Assembly: GCA_963811165.1 (NCBI GenBank)
Contig: CAWEQH010000004.1
Location: forward strand, 480,001-544,000
Origin: an uncultured Nitrospiraceae bacterium
GTDB lineage: Bacteria > Nitrospirota > Thermodesulfovibrionia > Thermodesulfovibrionales > UBA6898
Reading direction: 5' to 3'
Length of the DNA stretch: 64,000 bases
The notes under the pieces: model-generated
The model's input: the letters and a program-made list of their open reading frames with translations, nothing else
The model's database searches: none
Told to the model about the DNA's origin: nothing
Made by a program: the position numbers and the translations under genes
Part shown: positions 1,328 to 63,411 of the stretch, piece by piece
Layout: each line of letters starts with the position of its first letter
How positions within the stretch are numbered: position 1 is the stretch's first letter

Positions 1328-2047
1328 TTATTCTACAGGATCGGGAACGATGAAATATGTGACCCAGCGGTAGAACCGATCAAAATTATTGTCTGCCGGA
1401 CTTGTCCTTGTCACATTAAGGACGAGAACATAAAGACCCGGAGGGATATCCTGCAGGTCCGTGGGGCCCAGAAGGGTATCGGTGACCCCGAGCACATTGG
1501 TTTTCCATGGGGTGAGTCTCTTCAACCTTTTCCTCGGCTCCGGATGGTAGCGATTGGACCCATGGCCATTGTCGGCGGACTGAACGGTAGGTTCAGAGGC
1601 CAATTCATCCTGGAGCGAAGTGATCTGATTGAAGATGTTTACGAAAAATATGTCCGCAGCGTCAAATGACGCCGCGAAGTAGCCGAACGACACGTCAACA
1701 GGCTCTTCAAACGGCCCAATGTCTACCGCTACTTCCAGAGAATTACCGCCACTGGCAACACTGCCTACCCCGATCGGCTTGGCTTTAGCCGGGTTGCAGC
1801 TTACAACAGGTTCTTCAACAGGAGTATAGGTGAATACACGCTTGCCGGTAGGCAGAGGCATAGTGCACGGCGGGGGCGCCGTAACGGTTTCGGTCACGGC
1901 CATAAAGTTCTGGACACCTCTTTGATTGAAATACTCATAGACGAGCTGATCGCCCGCACCCCCTGGATTGGCATACGCCTGTGCGGCCCCGAAAATACAG
2001 ATACCGATAACAAGAAATAATAATGCCGCGAAGCTTCTTTTACACAT
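1328..2047 (-). CDS. Secreted hypothetical protein consisting mainly of the shared ~150-aa unknown domain
   Basis: Sec signal peptide (..AQAYA) and RBS AGGAGG. Contains PIGVGSVASGGNSL..V....F..PVD, PWK.NV and PPGLY motifs. Confidence 0.8.
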   Translation of the reverse strand: MCKRSFAALLFLVIGICIFGAAQAYANPGGAGDQLVYEYFNQRGVQNFMAVTETVTAPPPCTMPLPTGKRVFTYTPVEEPVVSCNPAKAKPIGVGSVASGGNSLEVAVDIGPFEEPVDVSFGYFAASFDAADIFFVNIFNQITSLQDELASEPTVQSADNGHGSNRYHPEPRKRLKRLTPWKTNVLGVTDTLLGPTDLQDIPPGLYVLVLNVTRTSPADNNFDRFYRWVTYFIVPDPVE

Positions 2048-5933: not shown

Positions 5934-8535
5934 CTAGTATAGTATGAGGTTCTCGGCGGTGACCGCCAAAGAGTCCCTGCCGATCGTCACGGACCCGTGG
6001 ATGATCGAGTATGACGTCTGACTGCCGAACTCGCAATTCCAGCCGCCGCTCAGCGTGACCGCGATAGGGCGATTGAGATCCAATATCTCGGTCAGAGTTG
6101 TTGCGAGGAGCTGGATGGTATCATCAGGATCATGAGCATTGGCATAGGCGTCCGTAAGGCCCCCAACCGTAGCATATGATGTACCGTTGTTTACATTCTT
6201 TGCATAGTTACCTGGGCAGGTCGTATAACTCGCCGTGCAAGTCTTAACGCCATTCATCGTGACACCTGCCGAGGGGTTTGAGCCGGAACAGTTTCCTCCC
6301 CATGAATTAAATATATAGTCGCTGTTCGGGATGGCCAACAACCCTGCCGAGGTATCTGAATTATACCAGCATCCCAAAGAGCAATCAGGACTTACAGCAC
6401 CACCAGTCGGCGCAGGCACAGTCAACTGATACTGCGTCGTAAAGTTTGCCGTATACGTTCCGTCGGCTGCAGGCGAAATAGAGTGGCTCTGAGCCCCGCC
6501 GTCACTCCAGGACGAATAAATATACTGAGTCCCTGGGCCTCCGCTTTGGGGCGATGAGACCGCGATCGTATGGCCCGCGCCCGGGTTCCAGACATACATA
6601 TACGGCGCAACAGCATCACCCTCATCCAACGTAAAATGCAGGCCCGAAGGGGAAGTGACAATATTTATCCGCACAGAAAGAGTGGCGGTCGCGACAGCCC
6701 CAGTTGAGACATTTCCGACAGCGTCATACGCGCAAACACGGTAGTAATAAGTCATCCCGTTTGTGAGTCCTGTATCGGTCTTTGAGGTAGCACTGCCGAC
6801 ATAGACCTGTGTTCCGCTTGCGCACTGGGTGGCCGGAGTTCCCACTGTACTTCTTACGACTTTATACGTATTTGTTGGGTTAAGACCACCGCTGTCTGAT
6901 GCAGCGGTCCAACTCAAAAAGACCTGCCCATTGTCCGGCGTTGGCGTAAGTATTCCGTCTGCCGGAGGGGTTGTATCGCCCCCGGCAAACGCCTTGATGC
7001 AGACGTTTGTGTTTGAATCATATGAAAGTGTTATGTCTGACCAGCTTGTGCCACTACTGCTTATGAAACTCTGCCCGGCGCTGGCAGTGGCACCTGTACT
7101 ATAGCCGTCCCAAGGGTATTCCATTGGGATAGGCCAGTTGTACCCCGGCGTCGTGAGTTTTACCACAACAGAGAAGCTCTGGCCGTCCGTAACAGAGACA
7201 GGGGAGCTTAATGTAACTGTATGGTAACCTGGCATTGCCATCGTGCCTGTATTTGTAGAGCCTAGCGGGCCGCTTCTTGGGGCCCCGCCAGAGACATTTG
7301 AATAGACGTATATCTCGTACGGAGAATTCGGTGATGCCACATAGAAACTTACCGCAGTCAGCTGCTCGGTTGCGGCTGCAGTAAAGATATTGGCAAACCA
7401 TGGTGTTGTGCTTCCGTAGCCAATGCCGCTCATCCAGCCGAGCGGATCATACTGATATAACGCGTATAGTTGGTAGTCGATTGGGCTCCGTTAAAGACAT
7501 AGTTACTCTCCTTGCCCAATTGCGAGTCATCATAGTACGAGATATAAAAATATCCGCCGTTTACACCCCATGCTGTCCCCCAACTGTTTTTGATGATAAA
7601 GGCGCCATTGCCTGGCGGAGTAGGAGAAAAGTTGACTGAAGCTGTAGTTATCGTCCCACCCACAATATCTACCGCGTGGTTGCAGTACTGCGCCCGGAAT
7701 AATAATACGTCGTACAGGTGCCTGTGTGGTTGCTCATATGAGGTAGCCGTAGCCTCGCGGACCGGTCCAGAACAGGAAGTCATCGACGCCCCATAAGTCA
7801 TCACTGCCTGTTTGATGTTATCATTATCCGTGGATACTTCCCCTCGGCGGGATGATAAGGACCTCCTGCAGATGTTTTTGCAGAGTCGTCGAGACAGCGG
7901 CGTAAACACCGGTGGGGGAGGAAATGAAGCGTATAAGGATCATGCGGTTTCATTGATAGGTCCACTCTAAAGCCAGGATGCTCCCCAGCGCGCAAGATAT
8001 GCGATAGACATGTCCCCATTTCCGCCTTCACACGCGCAGCCAATCAAATCCATGAGTGTATGTTTCAGATTATATCTCTGAAAAGTCCCATGTTCCGGTT
8101 CCGCAGTAGGAAGGTCGGACTCCAGAGAGCCCATCGCTCCAAATGCCCAGCAATCGCCACAGCTAATTGGTTCTCACTGCCGTGACCTTGCCAGGGTGCG
8201 GAGATCATAACTCGCCGGCAGAGTGCAGCGGGCTCCCATAGAATGGCCCTGTGTGAATCTGCCGGAAAGATGGACTGCCCGGTAAGGTGCGACAGGTCAA
8301 GGGGAGAGGGTATATAGCCGAGGGCGTATCCGTCGGAGGTAACGTTTGGAATGCTTAAGCGTGGCACGCTCTTCAAATTCATATAATCGACGAATTTCGG
8401 GTTTAAAGGGGCCATTACAGGAATTTCCTGGTCCTGTGCGGACACCGGTATGCTTGTGAAAAGCATGAGACCGCACAATAGCAATACAGTTAGGACGATG
8501 TCCGTCAAGACCCTGTCTTTTCTGCAATAAATCAT
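5934..8535 (-). pseudogene. Secreted C1A (papain-like) cysteine protease with lectin-like, FN3 and InlB-B-like repeat domains; multiple frameshifts at ~7430-8250
   Basis: Signal peptide and LGYIPSP propeptide. LPASYDLR, CGDCWAF (CWAF at 8141-8152), CEGGN, NHAV.IVG and IIKNSWG are spread over different frames. Intact C-terminal frame 5934-7433 has AN.FTA, YHTV.L, NVCIKAF and YYYRVCAYD. Confidence 0.8.
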
Positions 8536-50741: not shown

Positions 50742-51767
50742 CTAGAGCTCCCTTCCCACAGCCTGGGCTATGGGCCTGAGCTCTTTCATTAATTTCTCGA
50801 AATGATCGGGTTTGAGGGACTGCTCGCCGTCGGACATCGCCTCTTCAGGATTTGTGTGGACCTCTATAATCAGCGCGTCCGCTCCGGCCGCGACAGCCGC
50901 CTTCGCCATCGGCGCAACAAGTTCCCTCTTCCCCACGCCGTGGCTGGGGTCGACGACTACCGGCAGGTGGGTGAGCTGTTTGAGGACCGGGACAGCGCTC
51001 AGGTCCAGGGTGTTTCTCGTTGCAGTCTCGAAGGTGCGGATGCCCCTTTCGCAAAGCATCACCTGGTGGTTTCCGCGGGACATGATATACTCCGCCGACA
51101 TAAGCCATTCCTTTATCGTCGAGGAGAGCCCCCGTTTGAGCAAGACCGGCTTTTGGGCGGACCCGACCTCAAGGAGGAGCCTGAAGTTCTGCATGTTCCT
51201 CGCGCCGATCTGGATGATGTCGGCATACTTGACGATCGCATCGAGGTCCCTGGGGTCCATGATCTCGGTCACCACAGGCAGGCCTGTCCTTTCCCTGGCC
51301 TCTGCAAGATATTTCAGTCCTTCCTCGCCAAGGCCCTGGAAAGAGTACGGAGATGTCCTGGGCTTATAGGCCCCGCCCCTTAGGAACGCTGCGCCGCCTG
51401 CCTTCACCTTTTCGGCGATAGCCAGAAGGACGGTCTTGTTCTCTACCGCGCACGGACCCGCCATGACCGGTATTCTTTTACCTCCTATAATAGTGCCTCT
51501 GATGTCTATCTCGGTGTTTTCCTTCTTGAATTCACGGCTCGCCAGCTTATAGGGTTTCAGTATCCTCAAGACGTTTTCAACGCCCGAGGCGGCCCGAAAG
51601 GCATCTTCTTCTTCCTCAGTGACCTTCGAGGTGTCACCTATGACGCCGATGATCGTCCTTTCTGTGCCGGCCGAGATGTGCGCCCTGAGCCCCCGGCCCT
51701 CCAGTTTTTTTACGACGTGCCTTATGTCCTCTTCTGTGGCGTCCCGACTCAACACAATGATGTCCAA
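50742..51767 (-). CDS. aroF: DAHP synthase class I-beta with N-terminal ferredoxin-like domain
   Basis: [37 protein letters not shown] and SDG.QS motifs. Confidence 0.97.
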
Positions 51768-55699: not shown

Positions 55700-56260
55700 T
55701 TACTCAATAATCAGAGAACCGACTGACTCAGCCTGCCCGCCGCGTACTGGCCAAACGTTGAAGAGGCCCGCCTTACTGCCGTAATACGGTGTGCCATCCC
55801 CTGTATCGACGACCCACGCGTTGATCGCATCGTTCGCCTTCGTAGTAGACGTCCAGTTGCCGTACGACTGCACACTGATGAAGACATTCCCCTCCGTCCA
55901 CTTCGCCGTGCCTGCGTCGTTCGTCAACGACGGATAAGTGAAGCCGTATCTGTTAGCCTGGGTGACCATCGCCATCAACTCGACCTTAGTAGGCAGCCGC
56001 CAGTCCCCTTCACGTGAATTATCATATAAGTCGCACTCTTGGGGGGCAAGGCCCTTAACCCATGCCATGGCGTCATGCCAACTAAGATATGGCATGCAGT
56101 GTGCATTCTGGAGCCATATCAGGCCTGTCCTGCAATCGGTAACCGTTCCATCGGCATTGTTCACATACCTCACACTGTTGCATTCATCAGCATAGGCCCA
56201 AGTCCCGAACAACACCAAAACTAACGACAATACTATGATCCTTCCAACCTTCATACTCAT
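55700..56260 (-). CDS. Secreted DUF1566 (Lcl C-terminal, C-type lectin-like) protein
   Basis: Signal peptide. N.DGTVTD..TGL.W, W..A, DWRLPT..EL, WTST, AW.V and VWPVRGG motifs. Confidence 0.9.
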   Translation of the reverse strand: MSMKVGRIIVLSLVLVLFGTWAYADECNSVRYVNNADGTVTDCRTGLIWLQNAHCMPYLSWHDAMAWVKGLAPQECDLYDNSREGDWRLPTKVELMAMVTQANRYGFTYPSLTNDAGTAKWTEGNVFISVQSYGNWTSTTKANDAINAWVVDTGDGTPYYGSKAGLFNVWPVRGGQAESVGSLIIE

Positions 56261-56586
56261 CCCTCCCTCTGTCTGAAAAATTGGCCTTAAACCACGGCAG
56301 CGGTAACTTCGCAGATGGAAAGTGCTGATTGAGCAAACGACGTGCTTGAAATTTTGTTTTATCTCCTCCCCAGGTAGTTGCCGCAGTCTAGCAACAAACC
56401 AGTACAAAATACAATAAAAAAATCTTCCGATTCATTATTATTTCAATAAGTTTTGGCTGCGGTGCGGCATTTTTGAACATCCGATTGTTTCCGCTGGAAT
56501 ACCTCACCTCTGGCAAGAAATTGACAGTTTCGAGTACAGGAAGAAGTCGAAAAGTTTATTGAGCCTCAGCTAAACAGGCTCGCCTT

Positions 56587-57409: not shown

Positions 57410-58438
57410 TCAGGCGTATTCAGCCAGGTCCCTGACGAGCCGCTCCGAATCTTCCCATCCCAGACAGGGGTCGGTGATCGACTTTCCGTACACGTTTTCA
57501 GAAATCTTTTGGGAGCCTTCGACGAGATAGCTTTCGATCATAAGGCCCTTTACCTTGTTCCTGAGAGTCTTGGAATGCTGCCGGCTCCTCATTACTTCTT
57601 TGGCGATCCTGGGCTGCTCGAAAAAGCGTTTGTTCGAATTTGCGTGGTTGGTGTCGACTATGATCGCGGGGAAGAGGAGGTTTCGTTTCTTATATGCTTC
57701 CGCCAGCCTTTTAAGGTCTTCATAGTGATAATTGGGAATATTGTACCCGTAGTGGTTTACGGCGCCCCTTAATATGCAGTGGGTGAGCGGATTGCCTGAT
57801 GTCTTTACCTCCCAGCCGTTATAGACAAAGACATGCGGCAGTTGGGAGGCCTGTACCGAATTGAGCATTACTTCGAGGTCCCCGCTTGTGGGGTTCTTCA
57901 TCCCCGACGGCACATCGAGTCCGCTTATGGTGAGCCGGTGGAGCTGGCTTTCGACCGACCTTGCGCCGATCGCAACATAGCTGAGGATGTCGGCAAGATA
58001 CGGATAGTTTCCCGGATAGAGCATTTCGTCGGCCGCAGTGAGATGAGACTCCTTCATTGCGCGGATATGCATCCTTCTGATTGCCTTCAACCCGTTGACC
58101 ATGTTTGGGGCCTCGGAGGGTTTGGGCTGGTGGGCCATGCCTTTATACCCTTCGCCGGTAGTCCGGGGCTTGTTGGTATAGATGCGGGGAATAAGGAGCA
58201 GCTTCTCCTTTACCTCTTCCTGGAGTTTGGCGAGCCTCGACACGTATTCGCAGACAGGGTCTTCATCGTCGGCAGAGCACGGGCCGATTATGACGAGGAA
58301 CTTGTCGCTTTCCCTCTTGAAAACCGATATGATCTCCTTGTCCCTCTTCTCTTTGACCTTTCGCAAATCTTCCGGCAGGGAGATCTTCTCCAGGATTTCC
58401 TTTACGCTGGGAATTTCCCGCACATATTGAAAGCTCAT
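57410..58438 (-). CDS. DAHP synthase class I-alpha (AroF/G/H type)
   Basis: GPCS, KPRTTG.GYKG, IGARS.E.Q.HR, KNPT.G, D.NH.NS, G.MIES and SITD.C.GW motifs. Confidence 0.96.
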   Translation of the reverse strand: MSFQYVREIPSVKEILEKISLPEDLRKVKEKRDKEIISVFKRESDKFLVIIGPCSADDEDPVCEYVSRLAKLQEEVKEKLLLIPRIYTNKPRTTGEGYKGMAHQPKPSEAPNMVNGLKAIRRMHIRAMKESHLTAADEMLYPGNYPYLADILSYVAIGARSVESQLHRLTISGLDVPSGMKNPTSGDLEVMLNSVQASQLPHVFVYNGWEVKTSGNPLTHCILRGAVNHYGYNIPNYHYEDLKRLAEAYKKRNLLFPAIIVDTNHANSNKRFFEQPRIAKEVMRSRQHSKTLRNKVKGLMIESYLVEGSQKISENVYGKSITDPCLGWEDSERLVRDLAEYA

Positions 58439-58561
58439 ATTCTTTCCCTCGATTCTTTCAAGACTAAATTTACGACTTCATTTTAATATATTTTAAAAAC
58501 ATTCTGCTATCTATCTGAGGCATCCCGAAGGCTGCTGGAGATTCTCCCATTATGTTTTTTC

Positions 58562-58768
58562 TTGACAGAAAGTAAAAAGCGGAGTAAAATTGTCCTGTAT
58601 ATGTTTTTGGGTGATCTGACCTCGTGAAAACCATTAAAAAAACTTAATTTGACATTGGGGGATCTATTTTATAAGCTAAATCATTGAAAAAGTATTTCAA
58701 TTGCTCAGCCCGCTTCAAAGAAGATTCAAACAATAGATTTCGTAGTGGGGTTCCTGAAATTTCAGGAA
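58562..58768 (+). promoter_or_regulatory. Tandem sigma70 promoters and two palindromes upstream of the multiheme cytochrome
   Basis: TTGACA-N17-TAAAAT (58562-58590), TTGACA-N17-TAAGCT (58649-58677), ATTGAAA-N5-TTTCAAT (58683-58701) and perfect TTCCTGAAATTTCAGGAA (58751-58768). Confidence 0.7.
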
Positions 58769-58797
58769 GGAATATTAACTTTAAACAGGGAGGAAAA

Positions 58798-61700
58798 ATG
58801 AGGAGAAAAGTTCTCGTCACTTTACTTGTCACGGCTCTTATGGTTATGGGAGTCATGGGCATCACTAACGCATTAACGGCAACCGATGGGGCTGCCTTAT
58901 ATTCAACTGACTGTCAAATGTGTCACGGACCTTTGGGATCGTCTGCAGTCGCAGGAAGGAGCGCTGCTCAGATATCGGCTGCGATTGCGAATCCAGCTTT
59001 TCCGATGGCTGGTATGAGTACGCTTACGTCACTTACGGCTGATCAGGTTGCAGCTATCGCTGCTGCACTTGCACCTGCTCCAGCACCGACACCAGCACCG
59101 ACACCAGCACCGACACCAGCACCGACACCAGCACCGACACCAGCACCGACACCAGCACCGACACCAGCACCGACACCAGCACCGACACCAGCACCGACAC
59201 CAGCACCGACACCAGCACCGACACCAGCACCGACACCAGCACCGACACCAGCACCGACACCAGCACCGACACCAGCACCGACGCCGGTACCGACGCCGGT
59301 ACCGACATCACTCGTGCCTATGCCGCGTCCGGTGGGTCAGGTTGAATATGATAATCCCGGATCTGTCTTTCCTTCTATGAGCGCGGACCCTTCCCATGCG
59401 ATCCCGATTGGAGTCGGAACGGTCGCTCTCGGCGGAGATACGCTCAGCGTACAGGTCGGTCTTAACAAATTTAGCGGTCCGGTGGATGTATATGTGGGCT
59501 ATCGTACTTCAGCCGCTCCCGATAAAATCTCTGTGATAAAATCGGACTATACCGTTCAGGAATTTAATGTTTCGGACATAGATAATGCCGTGTTCGATGG
59601 AGCACCTGTGCCGTCAGGGTTTGAGGCATGGAAAACGGGGGTCACCGGACCGGTCAACGAAATCGTGTTGAACAGTCTGTCCATCACGGATATTGCAGCT
59701 GGTCAATACTCAGCTTATGTCTTGGTTACACCTGCAGGCGACTTCTCCCACTATTATCTATGGCAGACCGATTTTGCATCACCCCAGCATACAGAAGCTG
59801 CTCTTCCGCTGACTGCGCAGCCGCCGGTTGGTGAGCTGACATTCGGGTATTCTGCTCAGGCTTTCCCCGCGATAAATCCTGATCCTTCGCTTGCCGCGCC
59901 GATAAGTATCGGTCCGGCGGCATTGGGTGGGGACACGGTGAGCCTCCAGGTAAGCCTTGGTAAATTTGTCAGCCCGGTTGATATCTATGTGGCCTATGGA
60001 GTAGCGGCCGCACCTGACAAAATCTATCTCATGAAGTCGGATTACACTATCCAGGCGTTTTCTCTTAATGAGATATCCAATGCTATCTATCACGCAGGAC
60101 CAATGCCTAACGGGTTTGCACCCTGGAAACAAAACGTAACAGGACCGATAAACGAGATACTCCTGAACAACGTGCCGGTATCGCAGATTCCCGCAGGGTC
60201 GTACGCGCTTTATCTTATGGCTACGCCGGCAGGCAACCTTAGCAACAATACTATCTGGAGCACGGAGTTAAACGGCACTGGTTCGGACGGTGCGACCCTT
60301 TACTCTCAGAACTGCGCCGGATGTCACGGACCCCTTGCCGGCTCTACAAAGGCCGGGAGAACGGTCTCACAGATACGGGCCGCTATGAGCGCAAACCTGG
60401 GAGGAGTAATGGGCAGCCTTAACGGGCTTTCCGATTTTCAGTTACAGATGATTTCGGACGCCCTCACTCTGCCGACGCCTCCGCCTATGCCTTTGTCGCT
60501 TAAGACCACCGACGCTGCGACGCTTTATAATCAGAACTGTGCGCTTTGTCACGGTCCAAGTGATACGGCTTTCCCGGCGGGAGTTGCACAGAGCCAGGTG
60601 CAGGCGGCTATGAATTCGGTCCGCCAGATGCAGGGGGTTGGGCTCCTTCTTACACCCGATCAGGTGTCGGCCGTTGTAAATAAGATTGGTTCTCCCTCTG
60701 TTACGCCTACGCCGACACCTACACCGGGACCGACGCCTACACCGCCTCCGACTATGAATGGTGCGGCACTCTATGCGACTAACTGTTCGGGTTGTCACGG
60801 AGCGCTTGCAATGTCGGCAAAGAAAGGCCGGACTGCGGCGCAGATATCGGGAGCGATCAGTTCGGTAGGTGCGATGAGCGGGCTTAGCCTGACATCGGCG
60901 CAGATATCGGCCATCGCGTCTGCATTGGCAGGAACGACACCTATGCCTACACCGACACCTACACCGGGACCGACGCCTCCTCCGACGACAAACGGGGCGA
61001 CCCTTTATGCAAACAACTGTTCCGGTTGTCACGGGGCGCTTGCAACTTCGTCCAAGCGTGGACGCACCGCGGCGCAGATCACAAGCGCCATTAGTAGTGT
61101 AGGCCAGATGAGCGGGCTTAGCCTGACATCGGCGCAGATATCGGCTATCGCGTCTGCATTGGCAGGAACGACACCTATGCCTACACCGACACCTACACCG
61201 GGACCGACGCCTCCTCCGACGACAAACGGGGCGACTCTTTATGCGAACAACTGTTCCGGTTGTCACGGGGCGCTTGCAACTTCGTCCAAGCGTGGACGCA
61301 CCGCGGCGCAGATCACAAGCGCCATTAGTAGTGTAAGCCAGATGAGAGGGATTAGCCTGACATCGGCGCAGATATCGGCTATCGCTTCAGCGCTTAGTGG
61401 AACGACACCTACTCCTACACCGACACCTACACCTGGACCGACGCCTCCTCCGACGACAGACGGGGCGACCCTTTATGCGAACAACTGTTCCGGTTGTCAC
61501 GGAGCGCTTGCAACTTCGTCCAAACGTGGACGCACCGCGGCGCAGATCACAAGCGCCATTAGTAGTGTAAGCCAGATGAGAGGGATTAGCCTGACATCGG
61601 CGCAGATATCGGCTATCGCGTCTGCATTGGCAGGAACGACACCGACGCCTACACCTACACCTGGACCGACGAGCGGGGCCACTCTCTATGCGACCTACTG

Positions 61701-61980
61701 CGCAGGATGTCACGGCGCTCTTGCCAGCTCTCAAGTGGGCGGGGCCTCGGCATCTGAAATTTCGTCGGCGATCCACGGCGGCGTGAGTCAAATGTCCGGC
61801 TTAAGCAGCCTGACATCCACGCAGATATCTGCGATAGCATCGGCCCTTGCCGGTGTAAGAGGTTCAGATTCAGTCTTAGGTCAGGCGGCGCCTTCTTCGG
61901 GAGGGCTTCAGCCTGTGCTTTACGCCAGGATGGGGATGGAAATAAGACCGTCTAAAGGGCCTTTGTTCCTTTCAGCCTGA
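58798..61980 (+). CDS. Secreted PgcA-like multi-domain cytochrome c: 8 monoheme domains, Pro/Thr linkers, 2 copies of an unknown domain
   Basis: RBS GGAGG and signal peptide. Eight CxxCH motifs, each in a (G/A)A.LY...CxxCHG domain with a downstream Met. PAPT and PT-rich linkers. Confidence 0.92.
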   Translation: MRRKVLVTLLVTALMVMGVMGITNALTATDGAALYSTDCQMCHGPLGSSAVAGRSAAQISAAIANPAFPMAGMSTLTSLTADQVAAIAAALAPAPAPTPAPTPAPTPAPTPAPTPAPTPAPTPAPTPAPTPAPTPAPTPAPTPAPTPAPTPAPTPAPTPAPTPVPTPVPTSLVPMPRPVGQVEYDNPGSVFPSMSADPSHAIPIGVGTVALGGDTLSVQVGLNKFSGPVDVYVGYRTSAAPDKISVIKSDYTVQEFNVSDIDNAVFDGAPVPSGFEAWKTGVTGPVNEIVLNSLSITDIAAGQYSAYVLVTPAGDFSHYYLWQTDFASPQHTEAALPLTAQPPVGELTFGYSAQAFPAINPDPSLAAPISIGPAALGGDTVSLQVSLGKFVSPVDIYVAYGVAAAPDKIYLMKSDYTIQAFSLNEISNAIYHAGPMPNGFAPWKQNVTGPINEILLNNVPVSQIPAGSYALYLMATPAGNLSNNTIWSTELNGTGSDGATLYSQNCAGCHGPLAGSTKAGRTVSQIRAAMSANLGGVMGSLNGLSDFQLQMISDALTLPTPPPMPLSLKTTDAATLYNQNCALCHGPSDTAFPAGVAQSQVQAAMNSVRQMQGVGLLLTPDQVSAVVNKIGSPSVTPTPTPTPGPTPTPPPTMNGAALYATNCSGCHGALAMSAKKGRTAAQISGAISSVGAMSGLSLTSAQISAIASALAGTTPMPTPTPTPGPTPPPTTNGATLYANNCSGCHGALATSSKRGRTAAQITSAISSVGQMSGLSLTSAQISAIASALAGTTPMPTPTPTPGPTPPPTTNGATLYANNCSGCHGALATSSKRGRTAAQITSAISSVSQMRGISLTSAQISAIASALSGTTPTPTPTPTPGPTPPPTTDGATLYANNCSGCHGALATSSKRGRTAAQITSAISSVSQMRGISLTSAQISAIASALAGTTPTPTPTPGPTSGATLYATYCAGCHGALASSQVGGASASEISSAIHGGVSQMSGLSSLTSTQISAIASALAGVRGSDSVLGQAAPSSGGLQPVLYARMGMEIRPSKGPLFLSA
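59080..59307 (+). repeat. 12-bp coding minisatellite (CCAGCACCGACA) encoding 17x PAPT + 2x PVPT
   Basis: 16 perfect units followed by 3 variants. Confidence 0.95.
60700..61855 (+). repeat. Tandem ~234-bp coding repeats (PT linker + monoheme domain), 5 units
   Basis: The ACACCGGGACCG/ACACCTGGACCG anchor recurs at 60961, 61195 and 61429. The three central units are nearly identical at DNA level. Confidence 0.92.
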
Positions 61981-62006
61981 CATTATTACACGGTCATCTG
62001 ACCACC

Positions 62007-62038
62007 AAAAAGGGGGACATGTCATGTCCCCCTTTTTT
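62007..62038. terminator. Bidirectional rho-independent terminator between the cytochrome gene and paaK
   Basis: AAAAAGGGGGACATG-TC-ATGTCCCCCTTTTTT. Confidence 0.85.
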
Positions 62039-62112
62039 ATTGCAGCTCTTTCTTAAAAAAATGACCGGCTTCGGGTATCGCTTAAGTCCCGTCATCAGAC
62101 GGATTAAACAAG

Positions 62113-63411
62113 CTAAATCTTCCTCAGGTCTATGACCCTTTTGGCCTTTCCCTCGCTCCGCTCGATGCTCTTTTTCTCTACAAGTCTTACATCCACCCCA
62201 ATCCCGAGTTCCGATGCAAGCCTCCGTCTGATGGTATCCATCAATTCGTTTTGTTTCTTCATCTCATCGAAGAATATCGATTCCGAGACCTCGACCTTTA
62301 CGGTGACGTCGTCCATGGCGCCTTTCCTGTCCACTATGATCTGGTAGTGCGGCTCGGTCCCCTCGATATCGAAGAGGACGGATTCGATCTGCGAAGGGAA
62401 TACGTTGACCCCTTTTATGATGAGCATATCGTCGGTCCTGCCCATGACCCGGTTCATCTTGATGAACCTTCTGCCGCAGGCACACGGTGAGGGTATCAGG
62501 CGGGTGAGGTCCCTTGTCCGAAACCGTATGACCGGGAATGCCTCTTTCGTGAGCGTGGTGATGACCAATTCACCGGTCTCCCCGGGGGCAACAGGGTGCA
62601 GCGTCTTGGGGTCCACTACCTCTACCAGAAAGTGGTCTTCGTTTATGTGAAGGCCGTTTCTTTCAAGACACTCCCCTGCGACCCCCGGTCCCATGACCTC
62701 GCTCAGTCCGTAGTTATCGGTGGCGACGATCTTGAGTTTTTCCTGTATCTCCTGCCTCATACCCTCGGACCATGGTTCGGCGCCGAAGAGGCCGTATCTG
62801 AGGGAGAGGGAGTTGACATTGATCCCCATCTCAGCGATGGTGTCGGCGATCAGGAGCGCGTAGCTTGGGGTGCAGATGAGTGCGGTGGTCTTGAAATCCT
62901 GCATGATCTTTACCTGCCTGGCCGTGTTGCCGCTGGATATCGGTATGACCGAGGCCCCGACCCTTTCGGCCCCGTAGTGGAGCCCGAACCCTCCGGTGAA
63001 GAGGCCGTACCCGAAGGCTATCTGGACCACGTCGTCCTTGGTAATGCCGCCGGCGGTGAGCACCCGCGCTACAAGATTAGACCAGGTCTTAAGATCGTTC
63101 TTCGTGTAACCGACTACCGTCGACATCCCGGTTGTTCCTGATGAGGCATGTATCCTTACCACCTCCCTCAAAGGCACGGCAAAGAGGCCATAGGGATAGC
63201 TGTCCCTGAGGTCGTTTTTTGTGGTGAAGGGCAGTTTTCCTACGTCGTCCAGGGAACGAAATTCGTCCGGGTCGATCCCGGCCTGGTCAAACTTTTTTCG
63301 GTAAAAAGGTACGTTCATGTACACACGCGACAGCGTCGACTGCAGCCTCTCGAGCTGGAGCTGTTGGAGTTCTTCTCTGCTCATTGTCTCGTTTTCAGGT
63401 TCCCAGTACAT
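62113..63411 (-). CDS. paaK: Phenylacetate-CoA ligase family protein
   Basis: [37 protein letters not shown] and GRTDDM..KGVNVFP motifs. RBS GAGGAG. Confidence 0.95.

Follow-up and report, generated by a model that had tools for sequence, protein, structure and literature searches.

The closest described relative of the protein considered here is PgcA (GSU1761) from Geobacter sulfurreducens, an extracellular cytochrome (PMC5732950; PMC11520253). According to PMC11520253, PgcA domains I and II (structures 8QJ6 and 8QJG) are His/Met-ligated, with the methionine at His+27 and an acidic residue at His+7 (Glu281, Asp372) that hydrogen-bonds the proximal histidine, whereas domain III is bis-His-ligated and is the only domain that binds and reduces akaganeite, domains I and II just recharging it. 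Tethered diffusion was measured by small-angle X-ray scattering and nuclear magnetic resonance: the domains tumble freely and exchange electrons transiently, with midpoint potentials of -35 to -108 mV, and the linkers add negligibly to oxide binding (PMC11520253). Here, we describe a related protein from an uncultured Nitrospiraceae bacterium, encoded in a stretch of 64,000 nucleotides (the window; positions 480,001 to 544,000 of contig CAWEQH010000004.1, assembly GCA_963811165.1). A single open frame (58798-61980, + strand) specifies 1060 residues arranged as a signal peptide, a single-heme domain (bead 1), a stalk of PAPT repeats, two non-heme modules, beads 2-8 and a 42-residue tail. Our best reading, to which we give a probability of roughly 0.55, is a slow, envelope-retained electron relay and store: an eight-bead string of the PgcA type, likely exported and likely held at the envelope by its modules, that would move and store electrons by collisions between beads and not as a wire. 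The original prediction, made from the DNA letters alone, had already recognised the eight CxxCH beads, signal peptide, stalk, modules and proline/threonine (P/T) linkers, and this frame bears them out.

A second study of PgcA, in which neither domain 1 nor domain 2 reduced akaganeite but birnessite, Fe-citrate and chromate were reduced by all three domains, differs from PMC11520253 in crediting the P/T linkers with oxide binding (PMC10570954). Many PgcA homologues have several heme domains (PMC10570954), with 1-6 hemes being described (PMC5732950). A PgcA deprived of its lipobox is retained in the periplasm, where it restores electron transfer (bioRxiv 10.1101/2022.08.12.503762; review PMC12307469). 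PMC11492766 and PMC12977616 were used as general context only.

Heme beads, linkers and tail

The eight CxxCH motifs start at C39, C506, C581, C663, C741, C819, C897 and C968, and each is followed by a methionine 26-28 residues after the histidine, i.e., 30-32 after the first cysteine, in line with the spacing of about 27-32 residues originally given. The best non-repeat PDB matches of the whole protein were PgcA domains I (8QJ6, E 2.4e-11) and II (8QJG, E 1e-8). The single-domain comparison with PgcA that had been proposed gave the same picture, bead 4 alone matching 8QJ6 (E 7e-11) and bead 8 alone scoring similarly against domains I and II (41.9 and 38.6 bits), and all eight beads are assigned by sequence to the domain I/II type. 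Their methionine aligns with the crystallographic ligand of PgcA at His+27, and a methionine is found inside the ligand window in 116/116 beads from genome loci and 643/650 beads from proteins, which strongly suggests the His/Met ligation predicted from the start. There is no histidine at +25 to +40 in any of the eight beads, the sole later one being at +21 in bead 8; PgcA structure 8QK0 was matched by no query, in a comparison that had no positive control. The earlier statement that PgcA itself has three His/Met domains does not agree with its bis-His domain III (PMC11520253).

Bead 1 (58879-59073, +; His43, predicted Met70; Pfam PF13442) is followed by the 76-residue PAPT stalk (59071-59307, +), encoded by 19.0 copies of a 12-bp unit (59080-59307, 98% matches). 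Fully extended as polyproline II (an assumed geometry of 0.31 nm per residue), the stalk would reach at most ~24 nm, and the arm of beads 2-8 at most ~55 nm (likewise a calculated upper bound on an assumed geometry). Bead 2 (60280-60477, +; His510, Met538; 8QJ6, E 2.7e-11 for this stretch) comes immediately after the second module, and the divergent bead 3 (60505-60696, +; His585, Met611) has counterparts of the same position and type in homologues P0003, P0004 and P0220. Beads 4-7 (60751-61644, +; Met693, Met771, Met849 and Met927) are 78-96% identical, carry a net charge of +3 to +4 and are joined by 20-residue P/T linkers; they form a 234-bp tandem repeat (4.1 copies, 89% matches) and derive from its recent duplication. 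Linkers among beads 2-8 span 13-21 residues, the spacer between beads 2 and 3 being P/T in part only. Bead 8 (61666-61860, +; His972, Met999) belongs, by motif and tree, to a tip subtype in which S-Q-V-G-G replaces S-K-R-G-R. The 42-residue tail after it (61852-61977, +), with a YARM(G/D)M-like motif, is common to four sequences (also G002, P0174 and P0020); a search across this genome found it on no other protein at E <= 1, and we discarded it as a general sorting tag.

The protein resembles PgcA in its domain I/II-homologous monoheme domains, P/T tethers, Sec signal and non-heme region near the N-terminus. It differs in having eight His/Met beads instead of two, no bis-His domain III, no lipobox, linkers of 13-21 residues in place of (PT)14, and one bead on the far side of the non-heme modules, such that beads flank the modules on both sides. 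It also lacks the His+7 acid (A, T, F, A, S, S, S and Q in beads 1-8), which is missing as well from 114/116 beads of genome loci and 619/643 beads of proteins. All 16 cysteines sit in the eight CxxCH motifs, so that no lipobox cysteine is left, as had been foreseen in calling the protein non-lipidated.

With the stacked-heme cytochromes (MtrA/DmsE, OmcS, OmcZ) the protein shares its multiheme c-type nature and, likely, the same electron pathway, but it has ~13.5 kDa per heme, motifs spaced 71-82 residues apart (467 across the modules) and a predicted His/Met instead of bis-His ligation; models of DmsE and OmcA scored far below cut-off against it. These values agree with the earlier view that this is not a stacked-heme wire. 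By analogy with PgcA, the beads would move freely, which we hold with strong confidence. The heme-tethered redox strings of PMC10570954 likewise have several independent heme domains on low-complexity linkers, whereas the homologues gathered here are mostly lipoproteins (79/98 of those with a visible signal) and are capped by further heme motifs in 69/120 cases, and our protein has an unnamed module, a tip bead and a tail.

The non-heme module

The "two unknown domains" of the original prediction are indeed non-heme and unnamed, but they are two copies (59305-59787, residues 170-330, and 59797-60276, residues 334-493, both +) of one module, 49% identical (E 6e-58). A structure model computed from 101 sequences (pLDDT 94.7) predicts a beta-sandwich, with an N-terminal arm in copy 2, and its best VIA fold match (Z 6.4, rmsd 4.0, 102 aligned) lies within a flat list of Ig/FnIII-like domains. 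Foldseek of the model against PDB and viral folds returned nothing at E <= 0.001; its rows for lipid-binding ML domains (GM2 activator, NPC2; TM 0.23-0.33) were weak and were not trusted, and a single-sequence fold of both modules (pLDDT 55) was set aside, its fold search having given noise. The module had no match in Pfam, NCBIfam or PDB sequences (for 34 copies, no NCBIfam match below E 0.037), and a Protein Atlas search gave unnamed clusters only, at 0.88-0.90, and no named one. Structures 9I0D/9I0E ("Lipoprotein cytochrome c") were taken as the PgcA-type N-terminal domain since they match the N-terminal part of homologues (P0190 at E 4e-47; a Geotalea homologue matches them), whereas they match neither our protein at E <= 1 nor the module profile at E <= 10. 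By sequence, then, the module differs from the N-terminal non-heme "secretion" domain of PgcA. The protein would work like the relay domains of PgcA but is not PgcA, because it shows neither the lipobox nor the N-terminal domain of PgcA, and neither domain III nor the His+7 acid.

A profile search of this genome retrieved seven other intact module genes, one frameshifted gene and one fragment. The module is present in 15/40 relatives (14 of those 15 from the same family), in 3/200 genomes drawn from the phylum, and in 1005 clusters (50% identity) among 1.84 billion representatives, whose taxa are mostly unlabelled, the two named matches being a Nitrospiraceae metagenome-assembled genome and one labelled Euryarchaeota. 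On these matches, the module appears nearly restricted to one Nitrospirota family. In the best 150 of the 1005 cluster representatives, the set used for all counts of architecture and cargo, it is N-terminal in 62, C-terminal in 52, internal in 21 and on both sides or alone in 15. No membrane helix was detected by hydropathy in any of the 150. Its partners (115 of these 150 scanned) are proteases, adhesin repeats, propellers, Lcl, cohesin and cupredoxin domains, with families such as subtilase, M10 and M23 peptidases and InlB/BACON/FG-GAP repeats.

We noticed that module and lipid anchor exclude each other. A lipobox was flagged in 3/98 signal-bearing module representatives, all three with the cysteine apparently inside the signal (the other 52/150 show no signal, many being fragments), and among bead arrays with a visible signal in 79/94 without the module and 0/4 with it. 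The DUF3443 proteins behave similarly: in a sample of 33 loci (the 30 best of 48 genomes plus three), 27 are lipoproteins (26 by script and one added on further inspection), two have a signal plus the module (this genome and G002), one is a broken copy that follows module fragments (G006, where there is a lipoprotein copy as well), one is neither and two are cut off. A second cargo, a propeller domain, gave a mixed picture: one lipoprotein, three non-lipoproteins that lack the module but have a different terminal one, and, elsewhere, forms with the module. Three other kinds of terminal tag occur in this genome, two of them unnamed modules (on 13 and 3 proteins) and the third IPTL-CTERM-like tails (on 2 proteins), and none of the three was found together with the module on one protein, either here or among the 150 representatives. 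Because of this mutual exclusion with lipoboxes and other tags, the module likely replaces a lipid anchor, which lends comparative support to the tethering through the unknown domains proposed at first.

One module on many unrelated exported proteins of one lineage, excluding other tags, is also what characterises the sorting tags IPTL-CTERM (TIGR04174) and JDVT-CTERM (NF033191). The module differs from them in lacking a membrane helix (no C-terminal helix of that type was seen in our protein or in the 150 module-bearing proteins), in occurring N-terminally, C-terminally, internally, doubled or alone, and in having no sequence or close fold match and no processing enzyme identified. We liken it to SLH, dockerin and the type IX secretion system C-terminal domain, which are non-covalent envelope-binding modules.

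Some further proteins of this genome touch on these modules. A small secreted protein consisting mostly of one module copy is encoded at 1331-2047 (-), by module profile, and a second, near-module-only one at L004:2647-3225 (+); such proteins could cap or cross-link the module's ligand. A C-terminal module (267-818, +) ends a propeller protein of the sugar-dehydrogenase type (GSDH-like); the protein starts ahead of the window and is similar to P0077/P0109, which carry Pfam GSDH. At L005:2471-3901 (-), a secreted one-heme protein has four Cys-rich thrombospondin-like repeats and then a C-terminal module, and at 55700-56407 (-) lies a secreted Lcl C-terminal-domain protein (PF07603, E 9e-21), Lcl being a frequent module cargo elsewhere. 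A second unnamed module of ~88 residues with a GGYDC-F motif, without NCBIfam match, is always at the extreme C-terminus of exported-type proteins (5937-6227, -, and 12 other open reading frames), and a third, rarer one is on three proteins. Inspection by eye revealed no recurrent neighbour beside the module genes of this genome.

Distribution of bead arrays and their terminal beads

Bead matches were found in 12/40 relatives, and genome loci elsewhere have 7 (Geobacteraceae), 10 (Gammaproteobacteria), 9, 10 (Burkholderiaceae), 10 and 8 (Methanoperedens), 4 (Bacteroidales) and 5 beads (Nitrosomonadales). The gammaproteobacterial 10-bead array ends in JDVT-CTERM (36.5 bits, cut-off 27). Relatives also occur in Sideroxyarcus; of the named ones, most are reducers or else anaerobic methanotrophs. 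Restricted to lengths of 290-926 residues, a protein search gave 401 matches at E <= 1e-10; in the 120 proteins analysed, ours included, bead number ranges from 3 to 10, with eight or more in nine. Eight beads are thus a high but not an exceptional number, and the weight originally given to it is further lessened by the multi-domain homologues in print (PMC5732950; PMC10570954). In Methanoperedens (L049:878-9113), three bead genes of 8, 1 and 10 beads are clustered with a hexaheme gene, the 8-bead protein ending in a hydrophobic stretch.

Arrays end either in further CxxCH motifs (a cap, 69/120) or without them (51/120). A V/I-type tip motif marks the last bead in 40/51 cap-less and 3/69 capped arrays, compared with 12/403 inner and 13/120 first beads; the motif was defined after viewing the data (a stricter first version gave 31/51) and is present in bead 1 of our protein too, and the set includes fragmentary proteins. 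The split holds after clustering at 55% (13/16 cap-less and 0/14 capped clusters) and 60% identity (19/26 and 2/31). A motif-independent tree of 104 beads from 52 clusters places 16/23 cap-less last beads, bead 8 included, in one 23-tip clade (SH-aLRT 79; 0/2000 label shuffles; an alignment of only ~68 columns). The tip subtype is on average more charged (8.6 versus 4.9 charged residues), and PgcA domain II bears a tip-type motif (S-D-I-Q-T-R-T).

Orthologues at this locus exchange tips: within the genus, those of G004 and G005 have a diheme cap at the end and a different heme domain at the start, that of G002 ends like our gene and that of G006 is broken. Another octaheme protein of this genome (L009:2929-5043; G000:C1:445880-448045, G000 being this genome) has a P/T linker and an N-terminal monoheme domain with a DSDGDG motif; this type of domain resembles the replacement of bead 1 in the G004, G005, G010 and G024 orthologues and the start of the Methanoperedens arrays.

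Gene boundaries and assembly support

The frame starts at ATG 58798, 5 nt after a Shine-Dalgarno-type site (GGGAGG, 58788-58793, +) kept in orthologues; site and orthologues rule out TTG 58684 as the start. Upstream lies a likely sigma-70-type promoter (58633-58680, +) with an A-rich stretch and TTGACA (58649-58654), and the sequence AAAAAACT(T/C)AATTTGAC is kept in 4/4 orthologous upstream regions. PgcA has an upstream riboswitch; here, an Rfam search of 58300-58900 had no match at E <= 1, though an element not yet described may be present. The predicted signal peptide (58798-58872, +) reads as Sec/signal-peptidase-I-type (basic start, hydrophobic core, T-N-A, cut after Ala25); Tat export through the "MRRK" start was excluded, as the arginine pair is not conserved among orthologues. 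A 14-bp hairpin with A/T runs on both sides (62007-62037; -20.9 kcal/mol, z -5.6) is likely a two-way terminator in common with the convergent gene.

Contigs of four other DNA runs (two studies) cover parts of 59300-62300, tail included, without a frame-shifting indel in the coding part; none spans the whole gene, bead number and stalk length being known from this assembly alone. Frameshifts elsewhere in the assembly (dsrA, G000:C8:231910-233082; gspD, C10:1136291-1138095; one module gene, C8:170277-170914) are probably sequencing indels. A truncated or artefactual C-terminus can be dismissed for the tail, which recurs in the other-run contigs and in the three further sequences named above. 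The public protein set has the gene as an 828-residue product (P0002; window 59494-61980) devoid of signal peptide, bead 1 and stalk; automated gene callers can miss the signal peptide and first bead of such proteins.

Host genome and genomic context

The host is a non-Geobacter anaerobe of the Nitrospirota, as had been surmised, with a (frameshifted) dsrA. Its genome holds at least 42 open reading frames with four or more CxxCH motifs and three PF01578 heme-assembly genes. The search for a porin-cytochrome conduit that had been suggested was successful for the cytochrome, of the DmsE/MtrA family and over cut-off (252 versus 192), but less so for the porin, the adjoining gene being only weakly MtrB-like. 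Of the type II secretion system, GspD, E, K and L score over cut-off, GspC and a partial GspF below, and a multiheme cluster adjoins. There (L073:7897-19896 and L074; G000:C10), multiheme lipoprotein genes and a 9-heme cytochrome stand back to back with the secretion genes, together with a 420-residue probable beta-barrel, P0012, without family match. The genes flanking the bead gene we take to be DAHP synthase-like and phenylacetate-CoA ligase-like; presumably, two different DAHP-synthase-like genes (50742-51767 and 57410-58438) lie 6 kb apart around an aromatic amino-acid operon.

Electron transfer, location and possible acceptors

We hypothesize that the precursor would be exported by Sec, receive its hemes and lose its signal peptide, as the signal, the motifs and the PF01578 genes suggest, and would then be carried across the outer membrane by the type II secretion system, whose genes are present; we hold this outer-surface placement with moderate confidence. 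The modules would hold the protein on a candidate envelope ligand, to judge from their exclusion with lipoboxes and other tags, a retention to which we also give moderate confidence. From this anchor two arms would extend, bead 1 on its stalk over up to ~24 nm and beads 2-8 over up to ~55 nm. Following PgcA, electrons from a porin-cytochrome conduit would hop along the near-identical cationic beads 4-7 to tip bead 8. With moderate confidence, and again by analogy, the acceptors would be Mn oxides, chelated Fe(III), humic substances or other surface cytochromes, crystalline Fe(III) oxide being less likely in the absence of a counterpart to the PgcA domain that reduces it.

Several points weigh against the envelope-retained relay as we read it. 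The exclusion of lipoboxes is drawn from related genomes by heuristic lipobox and signal calls; for DUF3443, the swap was probably a single event, seen in one genus (three genomes). The module, without a membrane segment, could instead be a binding domain, a spacer or a mere secretion signal, and replacement of a lipid anchor would leave the face of the outer membrane undecided, the more so as PgcA functions in the periplasm once its lipobox is lost. Housekeeping genes flank the gene, which has no redox partner next to it, and co-occurrence with the type II secretion system or DmsE was dropped as evidence, both being common across the order (GspK in 38/41 and DmsE-like genes in 36/41 genomes). 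Lastly, oxide binding through the P/T linkers may be possible according to PMC10570954, as opposed to PMC11520253.

The same features would suit a periplasmic protein, whose modules would attach to peptidoglycan or to the outer membrane from inside and whose arms would store electrons or link quinol oxidases of the inner membrane to conduits of the outer one. The lipobox is absent, as in the PgcA variant retained in the periplasm; the lipobox swap fits also, many lipoproteins facing the periplasm, and a 24-nm stalk is similar to the periplasm's width. Nevertheless, the other cargo of the module is typical of surface and secreted proteins, related arrays bear a surface-sorting tail and PgcA itself is extracellular, and we judge a periplasmic location unlikely, though it is the main alternative. 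Electron direction is a separate matter: a higher-potential surface capacitor would share the anatomy of our preferred explanation and differ in its direction, taking up electrons supplied by Fe(II), sulfide minerals or partner cells, or keeping them through oxic spells. The absent His+7 acid should raise the potential, relatives occur in Nitrosomonadales and Sideroxyarcus, and MtrAB-type conduits can run both ways. Since the host has dsrA and reducers or anaerobic methanotrophs predominate among the named relatives, such an inward flow seems improbable. We regard as more improbable still the expanded PgcA, tethered or as a soluble shuttle, that would bind and reduce Fe(III) oxides with bead 8 or the P/T linkers in place of domain III. 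Bead 8 does belong to the more charged subtype that closes cap-less arrays across phyla, conduit and secretion genes are present, and the linkers have been credited with oxide binding (PMC10570954), although PMC11520253 finds them negligible. The Fe(III)-oxide role implied at the outset is, however, weakened by PgcA domains I and II, which alone neither bind nor reduce akaganeite, by the lack of a domain III equivalent and by the absence of a second histidine at +25 to +40; a mineral-reducing tip bead in particular is disfavoured because PgcA domain II, with the same motif, does not reduce akaganeite.

Significance

The class of architecture is already in print (PMC10570954; PMC5732950), whereas the literature searched contained neither the tip rule nor the module that would replace the anchor. 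That search, outside of which most subscription journals lay, returned nothing on arrays in Nitrospirota or Methanoperedens, the tip subtype, 9I0D or DUF3443/DUF2844.

Among characterised proteins, only PgcA passes electrons between single-heme domains on tethers, and in its set of three domains the relay is hard to separate from the terminal chemistry. The protein described here would be a natural all-relay version, and its tip-swapping orthologues make hopping distance and speed, and mineral reduction, testable by bead number and tip type. As the same bead is used in Methanoperedens, Bacteroidales, Gamma- and Betaproteobacteria, it looks as though flexible strings complement cytochrome nanowires quite generally. 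A broader picture is possible, though we offer it as doubtful: a sulfate-reducing Nitrospirota family might have its own surface-display system, with the module in place of the lipid anchor on some ten exported proteins per genome, and might build two-armed strings from interchangeable root, relay and tip beads, the tip lineage, common to methane-oxidising archaea and Bacteroidales, setting the acceptor without a bis-His domain. In an uncultured sediment lineage, the module would be a marker of the proteins that are exported or on the surface, and it may represent a novel signal for anchoring or secretion.

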